Notes under the pieces: generated by a model
Seen by the model: only the letters and a program-made list of their open reading frames with translations
Databases searched by the model: none
What the model was told of the DNA's origin: nothing
Position numbers and translations under genes: made by a program
Assembly: GCA_964350885.1 (NCBI GenBank)
Contig: CAYGKV010000001.1
Location: 68,891 to 132,890, forward strand
DNA: 64,000 bases
Reading direction: 5' to 3'
Source: an uncultured Candidatus Saccharibacteria bacterium
GTDB taxonomy: Bacteria > Patescibacteriota > Minisyncoccia > Phycocordibacterales > UBA2100
Shown here: positions 6,005 to 54,299 of the stretch, in pieces
Numbering within the stretch: the first letter of the stretch is position 1
Layout of the letters: every line of letters starts with the position of its first letter

Positions 6005-7273
6005 TTAGATTTTCAAAGATTTCAAAAATACGTCTTTGTGCAGGTGCGGGCCGATGATGGCGAGATTGAGGGCGTTGGTCTTTAGGATGTCCTCTGCGAC
6101 GCGTTGGACGTCACTCGCTGACACCTTGTCGATACCTTTGATTATTTCCTCCAGCGAGCGGATTTTGCCGATGGTGATGAGTGAGGTCGCGGCGTTCTGG
6201 GCGATTTCGTCACTCGTTTCTAGCGAGAGGGTGAGCGTGCCTTTGATGTAGGATTTGGCTTTCTCAAGCTCTGTTGCAGATACTTTCACCCGCTTTATTT
6301 TTTTGAATTCAGCGAGAATGGTTTGTATGGTTTTTTCCAATTTTCCGTGCTCTACGCCAGCTTGCACGACGAAGTAGCCTGTGTCCGGGTATTTATCTGC
6401 CCACGCATGGACGGAATAAGCGAGTCCGCGTTTCTCGCGCACTTCGAGGAAGAGGCGACTGCTCATCCCGCCGCCTAGAATAGTAGTAAGGACGGCAAGC
6501 GCGTATTCATCTTTGTGTTCGTATGGATATGCGGGTACACCGAGCATGAGCTGGGTCTGATCGGTTTTCTTTTCTTTTATAGCGACACGAGGTTCAGTTT
6601 GCAGGGCAGAGAAGGTGGCGTAGGTGGGCGCGGGAGCGGATTTGAGGCGGCCGAACTCTTTTTTCACCTTTGCGAGAATTTTTGGAGAAGAGAACGAACC
6701 AGCGATGCAGACGACGGTGTTGGCAGGTACGTAATTCCTCTTGAGATATTCTGAAAAATCTTTGCGTGAGAACGCGCGAATGTTTTCTTTGGGCCCCAGG
6801 ATGGTGCGACCGAGAGCATGATCGCCGAAGATGAGGGCATCGAAGACATTATCCACCGTGCGCATCGGCATATCCTCGTACATATCGATCTCCTGGATAA
6901 TAGCTCCGCGCTCTTTGGTGATCTCCTTTTGTGGCAAGGTCGAGTTGAGAAAGATGTCGGTGATCACATCAAGCGCCGTGTCGAGGTATCGGGCACTCAC
7001 CTTGGCGTAATAGGCAGTCCTATCTTTTGAGGTGAACGCATTGTAGACGCTACCCGTAGCATCGAGCTCTTCGCTGATTGCGCGCGCAGTCTGGCGTTTC
7101 TTGGTTCCTTTGAAAAACATGTGTTCCAAGAAGTGCGCGAGTCCATTCTCGTGCATACTTTCGTATCGCGAACCGGTGCCCGACATAACGACCACCGTCG
7201 CGGTCGTCGTGTCCGGCATGGGAGCAAGTACTACTCGCAGACCGTTCTTTAGCGTGTGAATGTCGTATCTCAT
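6005..7273 (-). CDS. M16 family zinc peptidase (insulinase-like)
   Basis: HFLEHM (HxxEH) inverted zinc-binding motif near the N-terminus. 422 aa. Confidence 0.75.
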   Translation of the reverse strand: MRYDIHTLKNGLRVVLAPMPDTTTATVVVMSGTGSRYESMHENGLAHFLEHMFFKGTKKRQTARAISEELDATGSVYNAFTSKDRTAYYAKVSARYLDTALDVITDIFLNSTLPQKEITKERGAIIQEIDMYEDMPMRTVDNVFDALIFGDHALGRTILGPKENIRAFSRKDFSEYLKRNYVPANTVVCIAGSFSSPKILAKVKKEFGRLKSAPAPTYATFSALQTEPRVAIKEKKTDQTQLMLGVPAYPYEHKDEYALAVLTTILGGGMSSRLFLEVREKRGLAYSVHAWADKYPDTGYFVVQAGVEHGKLEKTIQTILAEFKKIKRVKVSATELEKAKSYIKGTLTLSLETSDEIAQNAATSLITIGKIRSLEEIIKGIDKVSASDVQRVAEDILKTNALNLAIIGPHLHKDVFLKSLKI

Positions 7274-7584
7274 TCCTGTTCAGTTATACCGTAATATTTT
7301 TTTTCATGCTTTTCCACCTCACCAAGAAGTTCGGGGCTAATAAAGGTTTTTGCCCCGACCTTGCAGAGATTGGCGTTTTGATACGCAACATCTTTATCTT
7401 TGAGTGTTTTTTCGATAAATGATCGGAAGTGGGTATCGATTGTTCCCTGTTTCATCTTAGAGTGTTTGTTCGCTAGAAAAAAGGATACATCTCCTGTAGA
7501 AATCCATCCGTTTGCTTTGAGTTCTGATACTTTTGTCCGGTCCAGAACTCGCTGTTTGAGTATCTGATTCATTTTTTCCGACAT
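7270..7584 (-). CDS. hypothetical protein (low-GC)
   Basis: ORF with ATG at 7584 or 7572. Its stop overlaps the M16 start (ATGA). About 40% GC versus about 55% locally. No recognisable motif. Confidence 0.3.
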   Translation of the reverse strand: MSEKMNQILKQRVLDRTKVSELKANGWISTGDVSFFLANKHSKMKQGTIDTHFRSFIEKTLKDKDVAYQNANLCKVGAKTFISPELLGEVEKHEKKYYGITEQE

Positions 7585-7670
7585 GTGACGATAGTACAGC
7601 AGGCTAAGGATAATTACCAATAATCAGGTTTACAGCTTTCTTTTTTATAAAAACGCGCTATTTTGTCTGA

Positions 7671-19573: not shown

Positions 19574-20650
19574 ATGAAAAACTACTACGATATTTTGGGT
19601 GTGGCAAAATCGGCGACCGAAGAAGACATTAAAAAAGCATTCAGGAAACTTGCACACAAGTATCATCCTGATAAAAAGGGTGGGGATGAAAAAAAGTTCA
19701 AAGAGGTGAGCGAGGCGTATTCGGTACTCTCCGACAAAAAGAAGCGCGCGGAATTCGATACCTACGGCAAGACGTTTGCCGGCGGCGCGGCGGGAGGACA
19801 ACAGGCAGGGGGCTTCGGTGGTTTCGACTTTTCGAATTTCCAAGGATTCGGCGGACAAGGAGGGAGTGTGGAGTTTGACCTTGGGGATATCTTTGGCGAT
19901 GTGTTTGGTGGAGGACAGAGTCGCGCGCGCCGCGGGAGAGATATTTCAATCGATCTTGAGCTTTCCTTTCGCGAATCCATCTTTGGTGCCGAGCGACGCA
20001 TCCTTCTCGCAAAAATAAGTGCCTGTGATACCTGTAGTGGGACGGGCGCAAAGGCGGGTACCAAAACGATATCGTGCACAACCTGTAATGGAAAAGGGGA
20101 GATCCGAGAGTCGCGCAATTCTTTTTTTGGGACGTTCGCTACTTCGCGTTCGTGTCCACGCTGTCACGGCCGGGGCGAAATGCCCGAGAGCGCATGCGAA
20201 TCATGCCGAGGCGAAGGAGTGCGGAAACGCGAAGAAGAAATTCACGTCGTTGTACCCGCGGGCGTGGAAGATGGGGAAATGATACGCATGCCAAGTCGCG
20301 GCGAAGCTACTCCGGGAGGAGGGGCGGGAGATTTGTATGTCAAACTCCACGTCAAGGCAGATAGTAAATTTTCACGCGATGGACACAATCTCATTACGTC
20401 GCTTCCCATCAAACTAACCGACGCGCTCTTGGGTCGAGAATATTCTGTGCCTACGCTCGATGGCGAGGAGATGCTCACCGTGCCGGGAGGGGTCGCGCAC
20501 GGCGAGATCATGCGAATACGCGGCAAAGGAGTGCCTCATGGACGAGGAGCTCGCGGTGACCTATTGGTGCGCATTGATATCGAATTTCCCAAGAAGCTTT
20601 CAAAAAGCGCTCGCGAATTGATCGAGAAACTTCGTACGGAAGGAATGTAG
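19574..20650 (+). CDS. dnaJ: molecular chaperone DnaJ
   Basis: J-domain YYDILGV...KYHPDK, G/F-rich region, four CxxCxGxG zinc-finger repeats. Start at ATG 19574 inside the longer track ORF. Confidence 0.9.
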
Positions 20651-20701
20651 TCGCGTGGGATAACTCACAACCACTGTGTTGCGATGTAGTAAAATACGCC
20701 G

Positions 20702-21190
20702 ATGGATATACAAGCTTGGGAAACGCTCATAACCGGATGGCCAACCGACTGGATAATCATTGGCGCCCTCGCCATATTCGTGGCGCTCGACGCGCTCCGC
20801 TCCGGCACTGCCCGCGCCGCGGCTCTCATGCTCTCGCTCCCTGTAGCGCTGTTTGTGACAAACGCACTTCCGCAAGCTATGTTCCTCGGGCCTCTCTCGG
20901 CACAAATTACCGCGCCGCTTGCCCAGGTCGGTATATTTATCGTGATTGCAGTACTCCTGTATTTCGTCGCCCACAGAGCCATTTTTGCGTTCTCGGAGGG
21001 GGGAGGGGTCGTCCAAGCGCTTATTGCCGGCGGCGCGACTGTCGTTGTCTTGCTTATCATCTGGCTCCAAGTGCCCGCCTTGCAATCCATTTGGAATTTC
21101 GGCCCATCGGTACAGATGATTTTCGGTGAAGCCTACCGCTTCTGGTGGCTCGCAATCTCGTACGCAGCTCTCGGGTTTGTCCGGAGCTAA
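20702..21190 (+). CDS. CvpA-like 4-TM membrane protein
   Basis: DWIIIGALAIFVALDALRSG...LSLPVALFV pattern resembles the colicin V production protein CvpA. 162 aa. Confidence 0.4.
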   Translation: MDIQAWETLITGWPTDWIIIGALAIFVALDALRSGTARAAALMLSLPVALFVTNALPQAMFLGPLSAQITAPLAQVGIFIVIAVLLYFVAHRAIFAFSEGGGVVQALIAGGATVVVLLIIWLQVPALQSIWNFGPSVQMIFGEAYRFWWLAISYAALGFVRS

Positions 21191-21328
21191 AAAGGCGGCG
21201 GTTTCCGCAAGCTATCGAACTATTACGGCTGGTTTGTATCAGTGTTGAATTCGTGGTGTAATGGCGGGAGTGGCGGATAAACCGTCCGGGATATCTCACC
21301 TCGAAAGCTGAGATTGGAGGGCTGAAAG

Positions 21329-22012
21329 ATGCCGAATATTTCTTTGGAGCAGTGGATCCTGCTCTTCGGTATAATCTCGGGCTTTCTTCAGGTCCTCGGA
21401 TATACTGTTTACATTCGGGAAAGTTTCCGGAAGGAGATAGATCCGAATCCGGCGACATGGTTGATGTTCAGTTATGGGACCTCGTTACTCGCGATCCTTG
21501 AATGGGATCGCGATGCGTCGCTTGCTCTACTTGCGCTCCCCGTAGCATGCGCAGGGATGAGCATCATTGTCGCCATTCTCTGTTGGTTGCGCGGCACATT
21601 ACGGTGGCCGCGTGATTGGGAAAGTCAATGGGCAATACGAGCTTTCATCGCTGACGTGGGGCTCACCACAGCTTACTTTGTGGCGTGGGTACTCAACATG
21701 TCAGAGATTCTCGCAGAAGAAGGGCGCTCAATAGCCGCCCTCGTGTTCCTTATTGGGTCGAATGTGACAACGTTTACCGCATTTACCCCGATACTGCAAG
21801 AGGTCTATGAGAGCCCACAAAAAGAACGCGCGTTGCCCTGGATCGTGTGGACCCTGGCGTACACGACGCTGGGCGTTGCCACCATCCTCGAGAGCGGTTT
21901 CTGGACTGAATTGCTCATCTATCCCGTATGCTGCACGTTTCTCCATGGTGCTATTGCCTGGTTGGCGCGGCCAGAACGCCGACTTCTTCGATTGAGCAGG
22001 GCAGCGAAATAA
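21329..22012 (+). CDS. 7-TM membrane protein, paralog A (unknown family)
   Basis: About 7 predicted TM helices. Motifs NPATWLMFSYGT, ILEWDRDAS, PILQEVYESP and ALPW are shared with the downstream paralog. Confidence 0.5.
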   Translation: MPNISLEQWILLFGIISGFLQVLGYTVYIRESFRKEIDPNPATWLMFSYGTSLLAILEWDRDASLALLALPVACAGMSIIVAILCWLRGTLRWPRDWESQWAIRAFIADVGLTTAYFVAWVLNMSEILAEEGRSIAALVFLIGSNVTTFTAFTPILQEVYESPQKERALPWIVWTLAYTTLGVATILESGFWTELLIYPVCCTFLHGAIAWLARPERRLLRLSRAAK

Positions 22013-22017
22013 ATTTG

Positions 22018-22049
22018 GGGCCACGTCTCGCGACGTGGTCCTCTTCTTG
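22018..22049 (+). terminator. hairpin after paralog A
   Basis: GGGCCACGTC-tcgc-GACGTGGTCC 10-bp stem (one GU pair) followed by TCTTCTTGT. Confidence 0.45.
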
Positions 22050-22213
22050 TAGCACTCTCCGTTGCAAAAACACTATCCAGCGCCTTCATTCTTGGGCTAC
22101 TCTCGCAGCAGTCCAAGCACTCATCACTGGCTCTGTAGTAGTTCAGTAAACGATATTTATTTTTTACACAGGGGAGCCTTGTGTATTGGGGTGGAATGCT
22201 TAGAGTTCACTCC

Positions 22214-22864
22214 ATGGAAACACTTGCGCTTGGGCTATTGGCTGCGATTTTGCAAGCATTGGGATACCTTGCCTATGGATTCAAGGTGTTGAAACGAGAC
22301 ATCACCCCCAACGCCACTTCGTGGTTAATGTTTGCGTACGGCACGACATTTCTATTGATTCTTGAGTGGGATCGAGATGCAAGTATTGCCCTCCTCGCTC
22401 TCCCCGCAATCTGCGCGCTCTCCAGTATTGGCATTGCGGTGTACTGTGTGCGACGCACCAAACGTGCGTGGTGGCCAGAGCATCCGCTCGAGCGTTTTTC
22501 ATTTGCTCTCGATATTGCACTTACGGTTTCCTACATCTTCGTATGGATATTGCTGTTACGCGGAATTGTCGTTGAATCTAACAAAGATGTTGCCGATATT
22601 CTCATCCTCGCATGCTGGAATTTCGGTGTGTTCACGGCATTCTTCCCAATTTTGCGTCAGGTATATCATCATCCCGCATCAGAAAAAGCCCTGCCTTGGG
22701 CAATCTGGACCTACGCGTATGCAACGCTCTTGTTCATAACAATACTCGAGCAGGGCAACCTCAGCGAACTCACGCTCTACCCAGCGATTAACGCAGTCGT
22801 ACACGGAGCTATCGCACTCCGGGTCGGATATTGGCATTGGAGACACCGTTTTTCTGTGGTATAA
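22214..22864 (+). CDS. 7-TM membrane protein, paralog B (unknown family)
   Basis: About 45% identical to paralog A (NATSWLMFAYGT, ILEWDRDAS, PILRQVYHHP, ALPW). Start taken at ATG 22214. Confidence 0.5.
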   Translation: METLALGLLAAILQALGYLAYGFKVLKRDITPNATSWLMFAYGTTFLLILEWDRDASIALLALPAICALSSIGIAVYCVRRTKRAWWPEHPLERFSFALDIALTVSYIFVWILLLRGIVVESNKDVADILILACWNFGVFTAFFPILRQVYHHPASEKALPWAIWTYAYATLLFITILEQGNLSELTLYPAINAVVHGAIALRVGYWHWRHRFSVV

Positions 22865-22926
22865 TCCCGCGCATAATAAACAGAAACGCCAACCTGTACG
22901 CTGTTCATCACAATCAAACATTACCC

Positions 22927-23406
22927 ATGAAAAAGGTTTACATCGGAAAAAGCAAAATCGCAGGGAGAGGGCTTTTTGCTGGTGAAAACATACGGAAAGG
23001 TGATTTTATTCTTCCACTAAGGGGTACACTGATCCATAAAGAGTACCGTCGCGTTGGTAAATATCGAAACGAACAAACATGGATACCTGTTTCTTTGCAT
23101 AGATGGATACGCCCGATATCTCCAATTCGATTTTTGAATCACTCATGTGAACCGAATGCGGGCTTCAAAACGCCGACACGTCTCTACGCATCGCGTGATA
23201 TAGCACAAGACCAAGAGATTGTTGTTGACTATTCAACTATAGAATACTTGGAATTTTGGCAATCACCTTGCAATTGTGGCTCAAAACATTGTCGTCGAAT
23301 AATTCGTGCAATTCAGTTTCTTAAGCCGAAAACATATAAATCATACCTCCCCTACATCCCCAAGTTCCTACGCGACGTTTATGAAGACCGCCATCAAGCT
23401 GTATAA
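22927..23406 (+). CDS. SET-domain protein (putative protein lysine methyltransferase)
   Basis: GRGLFA (GxG), RFLNHSCEPN (NHSCxPN) and post-SET CNCGSKHC motifs. About 42% GC versus about 55% flanks. Confidence 0.7.
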   Translation: MKKVYIGKSKIAGRGLFAGENIRKGDFILPLRGTLIHKEYRRVGKYRNEQTWIPVSLHRWIRPISPIRFLNHSCEPNAGFKTPTRLYASRDIAQDQEIVVDYSTIEYLEFWQSPCNCGSKHCRRIIRAIQFLKPKTYKSYLPYIPKFLRDVYEDRHQAV

Positions 23407-23584
23407 TGGGGGGGTGAATCATGTCTTCAGTCCTGTCATTTTCACTGTTTTTGCAACCGCAATAATTGTCTCGATTTTCATTTGCTTTAAAGAACTGCTC
23501 ATCGAGCGCAATTATTCGATATTCACGACTGAGGAGCAAGTCGAAGCAGCGCAAACAGATTTAATAGCTCTACTCGGAGGCTGA
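23381..23584 (+). CDS. small single-TM protein
   Basis: ORF with TM helix VFSPVIFTVFATAIIVSIFICF. Possible alternative GTG start at 23414 just after the SET stop and a G-run. Immediately precedes the histidine kinase. Confidence 0.3.
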   Translation: MKTAIKLYNGGVNHVFSPVIFTVFATAIIVSIFICFKELLIERNYSIFTTEEQVEAAQTDLIALLGG

Positions 23585-23590
23585 TACGTT

Positions 23591-25258
23591 ATGGCACCTC
23601 TCATTGATCCATCGTCATGCGGGTGGGATTCGGCACGATTCCTCATTTTTTCAGACAACGTTTTTGCGAATTACATTTATTATTCCCACATTTTTCCAGC
23701 AGCTTCTGCTCTTGTATTGGGTTTTTTTATCTGGTTCAAATCACCGCGCTCCGCGGTTAACATCGCCCTCTTTTCTATTGCAATATTTTTTAGCATCTGG
23801 AGTTTTTTCGATTTGATTTTATGGGCAACTGATAAAACTCAGTACACGATGTTCTTTTGGTCAATTCAAATCTATTTCGATCTTTTACTCTATGTCGGGG
23901 CACTCTACTTCATCTATCTTTTTATCGATAAACGCGATGTCTCTCTTACTACGAAGATCATAATGATAGTTCCATTCATCCCACTCTTTTTCTTCGCACA
24001 TACGAATTACAATCTCATCGGGTTCGATTTCTCAAACTGCGATAGAGAGGCTCTTGAAGGGCTTTTGTGGCAATACGTCTACCTTGTGGAGATAGGGATC
24101 GTGACGTGGATAACGATTCTGGGTGCCCGGCGTTTTAGACGAGCACAAAACAAAGATACTCGAAAAGAAATTCTTTTAGTTACTGCCGGTATTCTTATTT
24201 TCCTCCTCTCCTTTTCGTGGGCAAACATTACAGGTAGTTTTGCAATTGATTGGGATCTCAGTCAGTATGGTTTATTCGGCATGCCAGTATTTTTAGCTTT
24301 CCTTTCGTATCTAATCGTGAGATATCGTGAGTTTGGTGTAAAGGTTCTCGCAGCACAAATCTTGGTTGCAATACTAACGCTTTTGATTCTTGCGATTCTT
24401 CTCATCCGAGACATTGAAGATGTCCGAATCATCGCAACCATTACAGCGTTGCTCACGGTGATGCTCGGTTACATATTGGTCAAAAGCGTGAAGCGCGAAG
24501 TTGAGCAACGTGAACTCATCGAGGTTCAGGAGAAAGAACTGGAGAGGGTAAATAAGCAGCAAGAAAACCTCTTGCACGTCATCAGTCATGAGATCAAGGG
24601 GTATCTCACCAAAAGCGAAGCGGGGTTTTCGGCGATTACGGAAGGGGATTACGGCGCGGTGCCGGAAAGATTGAGCGCAATGGCGACTTCCGCGCTTGCC
24701 GACGTACGCAAAGGGGTAGACATGGTGATGCAAATTCTTGATTCATCGAATCTCAAGAAAGGTACCGTTACGTTCAAAAAAGCGACGTTTGACTTCCAAG
24801 TCGCCGTCATGAATGTCATCCAGGAGCTTACCCCTGCGGCACAAGAGAAAAATCTGACGATTGATACCGGAATCGCGTGGGAGGGGAATTTCATGATCGA
24901 TGGAGATGAAAACAAACTTCGCCAACATGTAATAAGAAATCTTATTGACAACGCGATTCGATACACGCCATCAGGGAGTATTCGCGTCGAACTCGTAAGA
25001 AAAGACGGAAAAATCCGCTTCACGGTAGCAGATAACGGCGTAGGCATTACCCCAGAAGACATGGCGCATCTCTTCACCGAGGGCGGCCACGGCAAGGATT
25101 CCATCAAGGTCAACGTCCACTCCACCGGCTACGGTCTCTTCATCGCCAAGCAGGTCGTGGATACCCATAGTGGCAAAATCTGGGCCGAATCCGATGGTGC
25201 TGGCAAGGGCGCCACGTTCGTTGTTGAGTTGCCAGCGACGTACCGCCCCCTCAGATAG
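23591..25258 (+). CDS. sensor histidine kinase with N-terminal multi-TM (7TM-type) sensor region; no adjacent response regulator
   Basis: About 9 TM helices in the first ~300 aa. HisKA H-box HVISHEIKG. HATPase_c N, G1 and G2 boxes (NLIDNAIRYT, DNGVGI, GYGLFIAKQ). Confidence 0.8.
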   Translation: MAPLIDPSSCGWDSARFLIFSDNVFANYIYYSHIFPAASALVLGFFIWFKSPRSAVNIALFSIAIFFSIWSFFDLILWATDKTQYTMFFWSIQIYFDLLLYVGALYFIYLFIDKRDVSLTTKIIMIVPFIPLFFFAHTNYNLIGFDFSNCDREALEGLLWQYVYLVEIGIVTWITILGARRFRRAQNKDTRKEILLVTAGILIFLLSFSWANITGSFAIDWDLSQYGLFGMPVFLAFLSYLIVRYREFGVKVLAAQILVAILTLLILAILLIRDIEDVRIIATITALLTVMLGYILVKSVKREVEQRELIEVQEKELERVNKQQENLLHVISHEIKGYLTKSEAGFSAITEGDYGAVPERLSAMATSALADVRKGVDMVMQILDSSNLKKGTVTFKKATFDFQVAVMNVIQELTPAAQEKNLTIDTGIAWEGNFMIDGDENKLRQHVIRNLIDNAIRYTPSGSIRVELVRKDGKIRFTVADNGVGITPEDMAHLFTEGGHGKDSIKVNVHSTGYGLFIAKQVVDTHSGKIWAESDGAGKGATFVVELPATYRPLR

Positions 25259-25459
25259 TATCTATCTCGAAGGGTTACCCTTGGGATGCTGAGAGAGTTG
25301 CCAACGATCTCTTAAAATTGTAGAGTCTTGAAAGCCTGTCGCCTTGGCAGGAAAAAGAGTAGGTGAAAAACTGCTTCGGACCGGAAGTCTGGAGGCAGGG
25401 GCCGGAAGCCCTCATCGCTTTGGCCACGGAAGGCCACAATACAGGGTTGGAGTAAGAAG

Positions 25460-26032
25460 ATGGGAAAGCTCCGCATTAACGCAAACACAGTTGTTTGCAT
25501 GAACGGGCTCGGGATGTTGCCTGGACCAGCAGAGGCGAGACACGTGGAGTCCGCCTACAGCTGCTTGAAAAGGCAGAGGATATGGGGGTTTTTGCGTTGG
25601 GTATTTCTATTTCTCGGTTTCTACCTACTCAGCGATGCCCCTGCCTTCCCCCTTGGAGGCGAGGAAGAAATTGCCCTCGAAACTTTAGGCGGTATTTTGT
25701 GCTTTCCGATCGCCCTTTTCTTTTTTTTCATGAAGGAAACGGCGGATGATCGTTTCGAAAACATGGAAGGAAGGCTGGGCCGAGACTTGGCCGACCTATA
25801 CGTGATTCTTGGGGTTGGACCCTTGGAACTACCCAAGACCCCGCTGAAAAAACAGCGGTCGAAAGCGGATGACGTTTTGCGCGAGGAGGCAGAGAGACTC
25901 TCAGTCCCTCAAGCGAACAGTCATGAGAACCAGGCGGCACGAAAAAGGTTCGGGAGGATTTTCGACCTGTTCAAAAGATTCGGACTTGTCGACGGCGACG
26001 AAGGCTGGGGTCCTTACTTCGTCAAGAGATGA
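25460..26032 (+). CDS. hypothetical 2-TM protein
   Basis: ATG ORF with two hydrophobic helices and a charged C-terminal half. Followed by a strong hairpin. Could alternatively overlap an ncRNA. Confidence 0.3.
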   Translation: MGKLRINANTVVCMNGLGMLPGPAEARHVESAYSCLKRQRIWGFLRWVFLFLGFYLLSDAPAFPLGGEEEIALETLGGILCFPIALFFFFMKETADDRFENMEGRLGRDLADLYVILGVGPLELPKTPLKKQRSKADDVLREEAERLSVPQANSHENQAARKRFGRIFDLFKRFGLVDGDEGWGPYFVKR

Positions 26033-26038
26033 TCTCGC

Positions 26039-26071
26039 GGCACCTCGGGGGTTAGAGCCCTCCGAGGTGCC
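26039..26071 (+). terminator. rho-independent terminator-like hairpin
   Basis: GGCACCTCGGGGG-ttagag-CCCTCCGAGGTGCC followed by GAAGTGTTTATAT. Confidence 0.5.
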
Positions 26072-26118
26072 GAAGTGTTTATATCCATACGAGCATTTTT
26101 CTGTTAAAATCTAGTGAC

Positions 26119-27054
26119 ATGCAGAAATTGTTGACGGGTCTTCAACCCTCCGGAAGCCTCCATATCGGGAACTATTTTGGCGTCTTGAGGCCTTTTGTAA
26201 ACATGTACCAAGAGTACGCGAGTCACCTCATGGTCGCCGATTATCATGCGCTTACCACGCTCAAAGACCCTGCACTTCTGCGGCAAAACATCCTCGACGT
26301 CGTGCGAGATTATGTGGCGGTGGGAGTAGATCCGAAAAAAGCGATTATCTTCCAACAATCCGACGTGCCCGCACATACGGAAATGACGTGGATTTTTAAT
26401 ACACTCATTACCATACCTTTTCTTGAGCTCGGCCACGCTTTCAAGGACAAAGAAGCGCGTGGGCTGGTAGCCAACGTCGGACTCTTCGACTATCCGGTAC
26501 TCATGGCGGCTGACATACTGCTCTATGACACCGATGTCGTACCCGTGGGCCAAGATCAGAAGCAGCACATCGAATACGCCCGTGAAATCGCCGAAAAATT
26601 CAACGCCGCGTATGGAGAGACGTTTGTCTTGCCGAAAGAGCAGATAAGCAAGGACATCGCCGTAGTGCCAGGTACGGATGGCAAGAAGATGAGCAAGAGC
26701 TACGGTAACACAATCCCGCTCTTCGGAATGAAAGATGAAATTCAAAAGGCCGTCATGAGTATCGTTACCGATTCGAAAGCTGAGAGCCCGGAAAATGTCT
26801 ACAATATCCACAAATTTTTCCGCTCCGGAGATTCGCTCGCAAATCTCTACAAAGAGAATAAGGGGAAGTATAAAGCGCTCAAAGATGCCTTGGTAGAAGA
26901 TATCGATGCCGTGGTCACACCTATGCGCGAGAAACGTGCAAATATTTCCGACGCTGATGTAAAGAGTATCCTGAAAGATGGGGGGGAGCGGGCACGCGCA
27001 GAAGCAGACGCAAAGATTACAATTGTCCGAGCGAAAATCGGTGTAACAATCTGA
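26119..27054 (+). CDS. trpS: tryptophanyl-tRNA synthetase
   Basis: LTGLQPSGSLHIGNY (HIGH-like) and KMSKS motifs. 311 aa. Confidence 0.9.
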   Translation: MQKLLTGLQPSGSLHIGNYFGVLRPFVNMYQEYASHLMVADYHALTTLKDPALLRQNILDVVRDYVAVGVDPKKAIIFQQSDVPAHTEMTWIFNTLITIPFLELGHAFKDKEARGLVANVGLFDYPVLMAADILLYDTDVVPVGQDQKQHIEYAREIAEKFNAAYGETFVLPKEQISKDIAVVPGTDGKKMSKSYGNTIPLFGMKDEIQKAVMSIVTDSKAESPENVYNIHKFFRSGDSLANLYKENKGKYKALKDALVEDIDAVVTPMREKRANISDADVKSILKDGGERARAEADAKITIVRAKIGVTI

Positions 27055-40696: not shown

Positions 40697-40886
40697 TATA
40701 GCCTAGCGAAGCGAGAGACGCGAGAGAAACACCAGTTTATTTCGTGTCCGAGCGAGCGACGGTTAAACGAGAGCAGCGAGTATAGCCTAGCGAAGAGAGA
40801 GAAGCGAGAATACATTCTCGCTTCCGAACGAGCGACGGATACACGAACGAAGTGAGTATTGCCTAGAGAAGCGAAGGAAGGAGTGG
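40697..40886. repeat. three imperfect ~76-84-nt tandem direct repeats in the ctp/antiporter intergenic region
   Basis: Units start at 40697, 40781 and 40857, each beginning TAT(A/T)GCCTAG(C/A)GAAG... and rich in GAGCGA/GAAGCGA. No identical repeat/spacer periodicity, so not a CRISPR array. Confidence 0.6.
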
Positions 40887-42596
40887 CTAGAGGACTTTAA
40901 GCGAAGGCTGCGGGTGTTCGTGGCCAATCGCGATACGTAGCTGTAAATGTTCGATGTGTTTTCCTCGCAAGGCATCATACTTGGTTTTGTCTTTTTTGAA
41001 TTTTACGATCAGCTCAGCCGCATGTTGCCCGCCGAGAAAATGCGGCAATATTACATAATCTATCCCCTCTGCATAGTGTGCGAGGGCATCAGCAACACGG
41101 TGGGCCACAACAACGACGATGACATTCGGGTTTGCTGCCTTTGCGGTTTTATAAATGAGGAGATTTGTCTCGTTGTCGGGTATGGTCGAGACCACAAGCT
41201 CGGTTTTCGAGAGATTAATCGTCTCAAGAAAACCCAAATCTGTTGCATCACCAAATTCAGCGGCCACTCCCCCTTCTGTAAGTGCTCGAGTAGTCTCTGG
41301 ATCATGATCTACAACGAGGAATTTCTCTCCCAAGTTCACGAATGACTCAAGAAAATCATAACCAACGCGATTGCAGCCGAAAAGAACGATTGCATACCCT
41401 TCGCGCCTCGTGCGCGGTTCGTGTGCGTCTGAACGTTCGAAGATTTTGAGCGCCGGCGCAAGCATCTTGTAAATCTGTTCGGAATACATGACGAGGTATG
41501 TAGAGCCGAAAATAGTGATAAGACCGACGAGCGTAACAAGTGAAAGTACTGATTGTTCGACATGCCCGAGCGAGAGAGCAAGTGCGACGAGGATAAGTGA
41601 AAACTCGCTAATCTGCGCGACGGTAACACCAGTCTGGAAACTTGTCTTTCTACGATAACCGAGAAGACCCATGATCGTCATAAGGATGATGGGGTTCCCG
41701 ATAAGCACGAGAGCAGAAAGCGCAACTGCCGCAGGAATGAGATTCGAGATGTCGCTGAATTGCATCTGCGAACCCAAGAATATGAAAAACATCACAATAA
41801 AGAAGTCGCGAAGCGGCACGAGTCGTGCACTTATCTCTAGTCGTGCCGGAAGCGAAGCGAGGGCGATACCGGCTATCAAAGCACCGCTTTCGAGCGAAAA
41901 TCCAAGAAATTGAAAGAGGGCCGCGATACCGACTCCCCACGCTATTGCAAAGAGGAGAAGAAATTCGTGAGATTCAGCTATGAACGTATTGGCGCGTGAA
42001 ATGAAAAAACGCGATGCGAGTATTACAAATGCAATAAGTACTGCACCGGAGAGAATAAATACTCCTACGGTGAGAATTGAGAGATCTCCCGAGGAAAACA
42101 ACGGTACACCCAAAAGCAGCATCACGGCGATAATATCTTGAACGAGAAGAAATCCGATAGCGATTTTCGCGTAGAGTACGTCGAGATCTCCCTTATCGGC
42201 TATGAGCTTCATTATTATTATGGTGCTTGAGAATGAGAGCGCGACAGCCATGTAGAAGGAGGCGAGCGGATCAAAACCAAGCGCGATGCACACGACATAC
42301 CCGACAAATGACGTGAACACTACTTGCCCGACTCCTGCGATGAGTGATACGCGCCCAAATTTTTGGATAATTTGCGGATTGAGATGAAGTCCGACTGTAA
42401 AGAGAAGGATCGCGATGCCTATTTCTCCGAGGAGCGCGAGTGTTTCCGCAGACTGTACAAGATTAAATGCGATGGGGCCTACGATGAGCCCTGTGAGGAT
42501 GTGCCCGATGATGAGAGGCTGACGCAAAAGGCGCATTATGACCGCGACGACGGCCGCTATCACGATGAGTATGCTGAGTTCGGCGAAGAGTTCCAT
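40887..42596 (-). CDS. monovalent cation:proton antiporter-2 (CPA2, KefB-like) with C-terminal RCK/TrkA-N domain
   Basis: 12-13 TM Na_H_exchanger-type domain plus Rossmann GxGxxG (VLFGCNRVGYDF). Confidence 0.8.
   Translation of the reverse strand: MELFAELSILIVIAAVVAVIMRLLRQPLIIGHILTGLIVGPIAFNLVQSAETLALLGEIGIAILLFTVGLHLNPQIIQKFGRVSLIAGVGQVVFTSFVGYVVCIALGFDPLASFYMAVALSFSSTIIIMKLIADKGDLDVLYAKIAIGFLLVQDIIAVMLLLGVPLFSSGDLSILTVGVFILSGAVLIAFVILASRFFISRANTFIAESHEFLLLFAIAWGVGIAALFQFLGFSLESGALIAGIALASLPARLEISARLVPLRDFFIVMFFIFLGSQMQFSDISNLIPAAVALSALVLIGNPIILMTIMGLLGYRRKTSFQTGVTVAQISEFSLILVALALSLGHVEQSVLSLVTLVGLITIFGSTYLVMYSEQIYKMLAPALKIFERSDAHEPRTRREGYAIVLFGCNRVGYDFLESFVNLGEKFLVVDHDPETTRALTEGGVAAEFGDATDLGFLETINLSKTELVVSTIPDNETNLLIYKTAKAANPNVIVVVVAHRVADALAHYAEGIDYVILPHFLGGQHAAELIVKFKKDKTKYDALRGKHIEHLQLRIAIGHEHPQPSLKVL

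Positions 42597-52530: not shown

Positions 52531-54299
<1,769 letters not shown>

Follow-up and report, generated by a model that had tools for sequence, protein, structure and literature searches.

The window analysed here is a stretch of 64,000 nucleotides from an uncultured Candidatus Saccharibacteria bacterium (GenBank assembly GCA_964350885.1, contig CAYGKV010000001.1, positions 68,891 to 132,890 of the forward strand), and the subject of this report is a gene for a SET-domain protein within it, together with the membrane-protein and kinase genes that accompany this gene. The SET gene is located at 22927-23406 (+) and encodes a protein of 159 amino acids (aa), in which the SET domain is followed by a post-SET zinc cluster and by a C-terminal tail of two helices (residues 128-159) that is specific to the family. 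Upstream of it lies the gene for a 216-aa protein with seven transmembrane (7-TM) helices, designated MP2 (22214-22864, +), preceded by its paralogue MP1 (227 aa, also 7-TM; 21329-22012, +), which is 43-47% identical to MP2 and carries the same repeat motifs. Downstream are the gene for a 67-aa microprotein with one TM helix (23381-23584, +), overlapping the 3' end of the SET gene, and the gene for a 555-aa histidine kinase (23591-25258, +). Comparison of gene orders indicates that the SET gene belongs to an old, vertically inherited four-gene membrane module (7-TM protein, SET protein, microprotein and kinase), which is found across Patescibacteria, the candidate phyla radiation (CPR).

The list of open reading frames (ORFs) places an alternative TTG start of the SET ORF upstream at 22831. 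The ATG at 22927 is favoured, since all orthologues begin at the equivalent MKK(V/F/I)(Y/H)IGKS, and the gene callers use this ATG on three metagenome contigs that carry an identical SET gene with the same neighbours. The first-pass annotation, a model's reading of the bare sequence, had recognised a SET domain from its hallmark motifs, and this assignment was borne out. The Pfam SET model (PF00856) matched the 159-aa protein with E=1.4e-13 and 51.6 bits against a curated cut-off of 22.4, a score far above chance, with residues 13-102 covering profile positions 1-104 of 105. The S-adenosylmethionine (SAM)-binding GxG motif is present as AGRGLFA (residues 12-18) and the pseudoknot motif as RFLNHSCEPN (residues 68-77), the catalytic pair D101-Y102 aligns with the DY of KMT2 enzymes, and the post-SET cluster reads C115-x-C117-x4-C122, with C74 of NHSC as the fourth zinc ligand. 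In the alignment of 41 family members, G15, N71, H72, C74, D101 and Y102 are invariant, and C115, C117 and C122 are conserved in at least 90%. The C-terminal tail, with the family motif IRSIQFLPxxxYKxYLPYIPxYFQxxY, was modelled by AlphaFold as two well-ordered helices, and a PDB search with residues 128-159 gave no match.

The AlphaFold model of the whole SET protein reached a predicted local distance difference test (pLDDT) value of 93.8 and a predicted template modelling (pTM) score of 0.88. Foldseek returned 362 PDB matches to this model at E<=0.001, the 50 best listed being all SET-domain methyltransferases; the matches include MLL1 (3.5e-10), MLL4, ASH1L, NSD and SETD2, in the range of 1e-10 to 1e-8. 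A single-sequence search against solved structures gave the SET domains of KMT2D and KMT2A as best matches (about 1e-10), and the profile of the 41-member family matched KMT2A at 1.9e-22, followed by SET1, ASH1L and NSD, all of which are protein-lysine methyltransferases. The position of the Phe/Tyr switch is occupied by Val100, and by V, I, F or L across the family; by comparison with DIM-5 and MLL1 this residue would presumably permit di- or trimethylation. The product is thus, as judged from its motifs, a minimal SET plus post-SET SAM-dependent methyltransferase, in which all the cofactor and catalytic motifs are intact, and it looks catalytically competent because the catalytic and cofactor residues are invariant and the post-SET cysteines conserved. 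It has no TM segment of its own. The first-pass annotation had also raised the question of a secretion signal; the N-terminus enters the first SET strand directly, and no hydrophobic signal segment was seen by inspection, no signal-peptide predictor having been run.

The SET enzymes had further been described as sporadic in bacteria, a view that is outdated. The family profile, run against 1.84 billion clusters, detected 19,574 clusters (at 50% identity) at E<=1e-3, and a single motif pattern applied to one genome per GTDB species found at least 591 stretches that encode SET relatives. The best among the matches listed is from Candidatus Kaiserbacteria RIFCSPLOWO2_01_FULL_54_20 (54% identity), and other taxa among them are Paceibacterota, Nomurabacteria, Moraniibacteria, DPANN archaea, Nitrososphaerales, Bdellovibrio and others. 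These matches assign the window to a Kaiserbacteria-like bacterium of the CPR. The same SET subfamily, with the tail included, is also found in tandem SET-SET proteins of 316-404 aa (the set of P0148, P0149, P0151, P0157 and P0159), and this set also includes giant members of about 1,400 aa, in which as many as eight SET-like stretches occur. NCBIfam contains no model matching the SET protein, the 7-TM protein or the microprotein.

The 7-TM partner carries internal repeats, GYxxY ... IxPNxxSW and FxPIL ... PWxxWTxAY, which are found in both MP2 and MP1. The AlphaFold model of MP2 consists of seven helices (pLDDT 91.8), and its 11 best PDB matches by Foldseek are KDEL receptor, cystinosin and SWEET transporter structures, with template modelling scores (TM-scores) of 0.48-0.57, probabilities of 0.89-1.0 and E-values of 0.06-0.35; below these 11 the scores collapse. 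None of the 15 family members examined gave any Pfam match, the PQ-loop and MtN3 models included. With moderate confidence, MP2 may be assigned to the SWEET/PQ-loop/KDEL-receptor fold as a distant member; its seven helices, in an apparent 3+1+3 arrangement, and its internal repeats would agree with this fold, at TM-scores that reach only the values given above. By inspection of the sequence, the charges of the MP2 loops fit the positive-inside rule for a topology with the N-terminus outside and the C-terminus inside.

The microprotein begins with a short N-terminal segment, basic in the majority of relatives, continues as a single TM helix and ends in an acidic tail. The first-pass annotation had pointed out a small overlapping ORF with a TM segment, and this ORF is real in the sense that it is conserved in relatives: 78 distinct orthologues were found between SET and kinase genes, with lengths of about 36-75 aa within a SET-kinase gap of 100-250 bp, and it is called as an ORF on the metagenome contigs of identical sequence. 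The conserved motif is Y-R-Y-V-V-x-K-D-F-x-x-F-T-D-E-E-(A/V)-(F/P)-x-E, and the end is often LLEE. The microprotein belongs to no Pfam family, and no AgrD match was found among 26 microproteins at E<=5.

The histidine kinase is composed of an N-terminal sensor of about 300 residues with about nine TM helices (seven hydropathy peaks plus two weaker segments assigned from the alignment), a dimerization and histidine phosphotransfer (DHp) domain with H333, and HATPase_c (Pfam E=1.4e-26). In 63 orthologues H333, N450/N454, D481-x-G483-x-G485, F495 and G513-x-G515, that is the H, N, G1, F and G2 boxes, are conserved. Pfam HisKA was undetected in the kinase of the window and detected in that of a related locus, L004. 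The orthologous kinases show two forms of the H box, HVISHE(I/V)KGYLTK and SIASHQLRSPLTSI, with matching differences near the F and G2 boxes, and among the look-ups made HisKA was listed only for kinases with the H box of SIASHQLRSPLTSI type (L004 and L170). Two cysteines of the sensor half, C10 in CxWD (codon 23618-23620) and C150 in NCDR (24038-24040), are invariant in the 63 orthologues. With the catalytic domain in the cytoplasm, the predicted topology puts C10 and C150 outside and K122 and K251 in cytoplasmic loops, and the invariance of the two cysteines suggests a disulfide, or a redox- or metal-sensing site. The earlier description of the kinase as an orphan is correct at the scale of the window, in which tblastn with CheY and PhoB found no receiver domain (best E 1.6); among the related loci a receiver is adjacent in L018 and L027 only.

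Within the module, SET begins 62 nt after MP2, the microprotein gene overlaps SET by 26 nt, and the kinase gene begins 6 nt after that of the microprotein. A promoter-like site (TGGAGA, 16 nt, TG-n-TATAAT) is located at 22838-22865 (+), 62 nt before the SET start codon; it is the best match to the consensus in 20600-26200 (10/12, with an extended -10), and it stands as a candidate only, promoter-like sites in this region being no more numerous than in shuffled sequences. A terminator-like hairpin was identified after MP1 (22017-22042) and a strong 14-bp hairpin after the ORF that follows the kinase (26038-26072), and consensus matching found no hairpin within the SET, microprotein and kinase genes. 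Near the cassette, Rfam detected neither a riboswitch nor any other known RNA at E<=1.

The genes next to SET had been taken as incidental neighbours, and they turned out to be the most informative part of the finding. In relatives with 53-60% SET identity on long contigs, dnaK and dnaJ are followed by genes for a TM protein of 162 aa and a membrane protein of 216 aa, and then by one or two SET genes, an ORF of 63-67 aa, the gene for a kinase of about 550 aa, trpS and aspS. The cassette of 7-TM protein, SET, microprotein and kinase thus stands between dnaJ and trpS in related, Kaiserbacteria-like Patescibacteria; the same order was found in loci L004-L027, L087 and L170, and it is retained over SET identities of 31% to 60% and in genomes of 30-61% GC. 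When loci were fetched with SET, the gene immediately downstream of SET proved in 21 distinct loci to be a full-length orthologue of the window kinase (36-54% identity over about 550 aa), and all 21 come either from metagenome-assembled genomes (MAGs) of Patescibacteria type or from contigs that show the same synteny; the loci from other phyla are without this kinase. For a reciprocal test of this linkage, metagenome contigs were searched with the kinase sensor domain alone, a query free of SET sequence. A SET gene was detected by tblastn within 1.5 kb in 66 of 69 kinase-anchored loci (those with at least 750 bp available upstream); with profile hidden Markov models (HMMs) and after removal of redundancy, SET was found upstream in 57/59, and the 7-TM protein upstream of SET in 36/43. 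On this comparative evidence, the linkage of SET to the microprotein and the kinase in the CPR is near-obligate.

The genes of the cassette have diverged together, the Mantel test on pairwise distances giving r=0.58 for SET and kinase and r=0.71 for SET and trpS (p<0.001); the distance correlation is r=0.75 for the kinase and the 7-TM protein and weak (r=0.27) for SET and the 7-TM protein. One exception is L017, the nearest relative as judged by dnaJ (83%) and trpS (74%), in which SET is yet only 39% identical and is followed by a second, degenerate SET-like ORF of 129 aa with NHDDNSN replacing NHSCEPN, a pattern that suggests paralogue turnover. Copy number also varies, since the window and L170 carry two tandem 7-TM genes and one SET gene, and several relatives (the loci considered being L004, L006, L010 and L019) carry one 7-TM gene and two tandem SET genes.

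The second line of evidence for a link between SET and the membrane is gene fusion, which is seen in other bacteria. Among the 149 top family representatives, 11 carry a full-length match to the 7-TM profile N-terminal to SET, with linkers down to about 5 residues, and further fusions were found in an Allosphingosinicella MAG (P0145) and, as a 380-aa ORF, in a Sphingomonadales MAG (L033). Because SET sits at the C-terminus of these fusions and the positive-inside rule puts that end inside, SET would come to lie on the cytoplasmic side of the 7-TM bundle, at its surface. Signalling genes adjoin two of the fusions, both proteobacterial: P0145 has a CHASE4-GGDEF-EAL protein beside it, and L033 a histidine kinase together with what the translation suggests is a receiver-GGDEF-EAL protein. 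Another 7-TM plus SET fusion, at 6001-7221 of L171, lies amid genes of mobile-element type, namely a serine recombinase, a PemK toxin, helix-turn-helix proteins and a TraG/TrwB-like ATPase. The fused form may be horizontally mobile, though the CPR cassette apparently is not.

The base composition of the SET gene had been the ground for proposing horizontal acquisition. Its GC content is 0.418, in agreement with the earlier estimate of about 42%, and its GC at third codon positions (GC3) is 0.348-0.375. The context of about 55% GC given with that estimate holds only for the 2 kb upstream of the cassette (0.53-0.57), the mean of the window being 0.513. Against the 64-kb window, to which all the composition deviations refer, SET has the second-lowest GC among the ORFs and deviates from the 64 ORFs with z=-3.1 for GC and z=-3.2 for GC3. 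From its amino acids and the codon usage of the window, GC of 0.488 and GC3 of 0.547 are expected for SET, against the observed 0.418 and 0.348; given the amino acids, the GC3 deviation is z=-5.1, below all 56 reference genes. Amino-acid composition as the sole cause of the AT-richness is out, since GC3 carries the deficit. The kinase gene is divided, its first 300 codons deviating in GC3 with z=-4.8 and its last 255 codons with z=+1.6, and in tetranucleotide usage the stretch 23001-24500 lies farthest from the window profile (z=4.0). The deviation is real; it runs from SET through the small ORF into the kinase gene, of which it takes in the sensor half, and stops inside that gene. As seen in the window, the AT shift covers 22927-24490, synonymous sites included, and is limited to SET and the kinase sensor half.

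Over the lineage, GC was compared with that of the flanks in 46 non-redundant loci (L004-L161), the flanks of which range in GC from 0.30 to 0.61. The GC of SET is under that of its flanks in 46/46 loci, by 7.0 points on average, and that of the kinase sensor half in 45/46, by a mean of 6.7 points, whereas the catalytic half equals the flanks (+0.6 points). The GC of SET follows the GC of the flanks across the 46 loci with r=0.86. Because the dip of SET recurs in every locus and the GC of SET tracks that of the flanks, and because hallmarks of mobility are missing, the AT-rich patch is an inherited property of the SET and sensor-half coding regions and not a sign of recent import. Faster evolution under weaker constraint, together with AT-biased mutation, is a plausible, speculative explanation of the persistent shift. 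As to the hallmarks, no tRNA was found near the cassette, the only tRNA call of the window being at 40876, no convincing flanking repeats were found, and there is no integrase among the minority of window ORFs scanned with Pfam. A dip that ends in the middle of the kinase gene is also unlike an inserted island. Recent horizontal transfer of SET was thus rejected on four grounds: synteny (the same position between dnaJ and trpS in relatives), co-divergence (Mantel r=0.58-0.71), the GC dip that recurs throughout the lineage, and the absence of mobility hallmarks from the sequence and ORFs scanned.

Taken by itself, the SET domain adds an ordinary new member to a family already known, and what is new is the module and the 7-TM fusions as a mode of its deployment. 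In the literature searched, we found no relevant work joining SET domains with Patescibacteria or the CPR, histidine kinases, gene neighbourhood or membrane partners. The reading that we favour is that a membrane-tethered SET enzyme methylates one or more lysines of a membrane-proximal protein, and that this methylation is coupled to signalling by the adjacent kinase; we put its probability at roughly 45%. The 7-TM protein would hold SET at the cytoplasmic face of the membrane, where SET would methylate lysine(s) of a membrane-proximal substrate. In the CPR lineage this activity would be tied to the adjacent kinase, either because the kinase itself is modified or because both act on the same signal, and the methylation would tune or record signalling with a logic like that of CheR, using lysine chemistry and an unrelated enzyme. 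This reading is favoured because the similarity to protein-lysine methyltransferases is much closer and because the linkage to the kinase is specific. Possible acceptors in the kinase are the Lys-specific positions K251 and K122 of the predicted cytoplasmic loops. K251 is K in 58/63 and R in 5/63 orthologues; it is retained as K in 16 of 18 high-GC orthologues, in which the background K/(K+R) is 0.57 and other basic positions switch freely, and we take it as a candidate methyl acceptor, no more.

Several observations weigh against this reading. The 7-TM protein conserves the intramembrane residues Y24, Y27, N39, W43, C73, D106, E163, W168, W171 and H203, aromatic and polar residues which a passive anchor would not need and which fit ligand binding or transport, and no lysine is invariant in it. 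K251 tolerates Arg in 8% of orthologues. The N-terminal Lys of the microprotein is replaced by Arg in some high-GC relatives (RRSR in L156, and Arg only in L006 and L013), and these lysines are therefore unlikely as an obligatory methyl acceptor. Outside the CPR, three of the 7-TM plus SET fusions were looked up and proved to be solitary, neither a kinase nor a microprotein lying close by, which implies that the core 7-TM plus SET unit can do without the kinase and that the kinase link is specific to the CPR. BurB, which the family profile detects at E=5.9e-13, is a case of a SET enzyme with a free amino acid as substrate. Co-transcription of the module is read from spacing and overlap only.

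Some of these points would fit better with the main alternative, a coupling to transport, in which SET sits at the cytoplasmic mouth of a facilitator or binding module of SWEET or PnuC type and methylates the cargo, a small molecule or lipid head group such as free lysine, an amine or an amino-lipid, thereby trapping or activating it, while the kinase only regulates the system or senses the compound. NadR kinase traps the cargo of PnuC in such a manner. The match of the 7-TM fold to cystinosin, SWEET and KDEL receptor, the conserved intramembrane residues, the recurring fusions with very short linkers, the stand-alone occurrence of fusions in varied contexts outside the CPR, the lack of an invariant lysine in the co-encoded proteins and the methylation of free methionine by BurB (PMC12542666) all speak for it. 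We nevertheless consider it unlikely: the nearest relatives of SET by sequence and fold are protein-lysine methyltransferases (1.9e-22 against 5.9e-13 for BurB), the Foldseek E-values of the 7-TM protein are weak and its PQ-loop and MtN3 Pfam matches absent, PnuC serves as an analogy and does not appear among the Foldseek matches, and the 96% adjacency to one kinase and one microprotein in the CPR would be left unexplained. Quite improbable in our estimate is a soluble target encoded elsewhere, in the manner of the archaeal Go1-SET and the chlamydial SET, with the neighbours sharing no more than an operon or regulon; nucleoid-associated and ribosomal proteins, translation factors and pilins would be examples of such a target. 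The characterised prokaryotic SETs that act in their own cell methylate chromatin proteins (PMC3980110), SET has no TM segment of its own, and its distances correlate only weakly with those of the 7-TM protein; against this, the gene order is kept although SET identity ranges from 31% to 60% and genome GC from 30% to 61%, and the repeated fusion argues for physical coupling at the membrane rather than for a free cytosolic enzyme.

The layout of the module also recalls agrB-agrD-agrC, from which one might propose a circuit in which the microprotein is a precursor modified by SET, processed or exported by the 7-TM protein and sensed by the kinase. The hydrophobic N-terminal part and the acidic (D/E)E(V/I)P(E) tail of the microprotein and the invariant Cys73 and near-invariant His203 of the 7-TM protein would suit such a circuit. 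The positive-inside rule, however, puts the acidic tail outside the cell, beyond the reach of a cytoplasmic SET, the HATPase_c of the kinase is ordinary, and the stand-alone fusions lack the microprotein, so that we regard the proposal as very unlikely; homology to Agr was rejected, since no profile match was obtained to AgrD (26 microproteins, E<=5) or to AgrB (15 members of the 7-TM family, E<=1). The proposal that scarcely deserves credence is the one with which the analysis of composition began, a foreign SET gene of recent arrival, the product of which might be an effector with host proteins as its methylation targets. The GC of SET, second-lowest in the window, its GC3 below all the reference genes and the tetranucleotide peak would agree with it, and secreted bacterial SET effectors are known (PMC3980110, PMC2904774). 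However, orthologous cassettes lie at the same position in relatives, the AT dip is found in all 46 loci with SET following the GC of its host and stops inside the kinase gene, no tRNA, flanking repeats or integrase (among the ORFs scanned) were found, no signal peptide is evident by inspection, and the 7-TM partner is predicted to keep SET on the cytoplasmic side.

Comparison with known systems places the module as follows. The closest solved relatives are the KMT2/SET1-MLL enzymes (26-29% identity in the Foldseek alignments), with near-identical core motifs GRGLF, RF(L/I)NHSCEPN, DY and PCNCG(S/A)K(H/K)CR. These are large multidomain proteins that are activated by WDR5-RbBP5-ASH2L and have histone H3K4 as substrate. 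In contrast, the SET protein of the window is a stand-alone protein of 159 aa without an N-flanking region or partners of WRAD type, has a very short SET-I insert and the extra two-helix tail, carries Val at the position of MLL1 Tyr3942, and is associated with membrane proteins instead of chromatin; the likeness is therefore limited to the catalytic core. For the Methanosarcina Go1-SET and the chlamydial SET, we know of no report that their genes are consistently linked to those of a 7-TM protein, microprotein or histidine kinase. Compared at the level of the SET domain, they are likewise small prokaryotic SETs acting in their own cell, the target of Go1-SET being MC1-alpha (PMC3980110). Reviews present the bacterial SETs either as effectors directed at the histones of a host or as enzymes that modify the chromatin proteins of prokaryotes, and SET genes have already been argued to be native to bacteria (PMC3980110).

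With the secreted nucleomodulins (Chlamydia NUE, Legionella RomA/LegAS4, and those of Bacillus and Burkholderia) the protein of the window shares the occurrence of SET in a host-associated bacterium, and differs from them in the lack of a secretion signal, in the pairing or fusion with a 7-TM protein that is predicted to keep it on the cytoplasmic side, and in a cassette that appears vertically inherited. Most of the known hosts of CPR bacteria are prokaryotes that lack histones. To our knowledge, no case of the SWEET/PQ-loop/KDEL-receptor fold fused to SET has been described. CheR acting on chemoreceptors offers a functional analogy, being a SAM-dependent methyltransferase encoded with a membrane signalling protein and acting on it. 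It belongs, however, to the class I Rossmann-fold enzymes, its methyl acceptors are glutamate carboxyls and its action is undone by CheB, whereas here a SET domain presumably acts on lysine, no demethylase is evident and the link comes from gene order only. BurB of Burkholderia (PDB 9l4t, 9l4v), also a small bacterial SET protein, is a methionine S-methyltransferase and indicates that SETs are not limited to protein lysines (PMC12542666). Its similarity to the protein of the window (fold match 5.4e-08) is much weaker than that of KMT2, and the context in the window is neither a bur nor a dimethylsulfoniopropionate (DMSP) cluster. Since BurB binds Met through main-chain atoms (PMC12542666), there is no side-chain signature to compare.

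Two more ORFs border the module. The gene at 20702-21190 (+), between dnaJ and the module, encodes a 162-aa multi-TM protein without a Pfam or NCBIfam match. Homologues were detected by tblastn at the same position in L006, L017 and about a dozen kinase-anchored loci, and L170 has at this position a 161-aa ORF, matched by position alone; the membership of the 162-aa protein in the module is uncertain. The 190-aa ORF at 25460-26032 (+), between the kinase and trpS, is poorly conserved, has no Pfam or NCBIfam match and has as its only homologue a weak match in L017, and is probably outside the module.

Elsewhere in the window, a 118-aa ORF at 53943-54299 (-) matches the Pfam '23S rRNA-intervening sequence protein' (PF05635, E=1.3e-17; GC 0.451, z=-2.0) and is flanked by ORFs that read as the beta and gamma subunits of ATP synthase. 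The lowest GC in the window (0.396, z=-3.8) belongs to a 116-aa ORF at 7270-7620 (-), which has no Pfam match and overlaps the start of its same-strand neighbour by 4 nt. Near the beginning of the window, an ATP-cone domain fused to a Mrr-type restriction endonuclease domain (146-1021, +) and a PD-(D/E)XK/Cas4-like nuclease (1663-2475, +) enclose the gene for an MgtC-family protein (1084-1641). The tRNA call mentioned above is a 94-nt tRNA-Arg (gcg) given by ARAGORN at 40876-40969 (+), overlapping the 3' end of an ORF at 40887-42596 (-). Rfam at the gathering threshold gave no tRNA there or elsewhere in the window, and the call may be false or may represent an unusual intron-bearing tRNA.

So far, the bacterial SETs have received attention almost exclusively as effectors that mimic histones or as modifiers of the nucleoid. 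In the present case a SET subfamily is bound to a kinase and a microprotein by a near-obligate gene order, and to a 7-TM protein by recurrent fusion, and these links point to a membrane-proximal role for SET methylation in prokaryotes. A wider proposal, which we offer tentatively and with considerable doubt, is that the 7-TM protein and SET might form an unrecognised membrane-embedded methyltransferase unit, with its two parts separate in the CPR and fused elsewhere, of which the CPR form would be hard-wired to the kinase and the microprotein; it would then serve either as a CheR-like lysine memory mark on a two-component sensor or in the methylation of the cargo of a SWEET-like carrier. The finding also gives a caution for calls of horizontal gene transfer that are based on composition, because the AT-rich patch has been passed on together with the cassette, in genomes with GC contents from 30% to 61%. 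The four-gene system is small enough for heterologous expression, and it asks what SET does in the absence of histones. The CPR bacteria have very few signalling systems and are largely uncultured, and a conserved kinase module may therefore be a useful handle on how they sense their environment or host.

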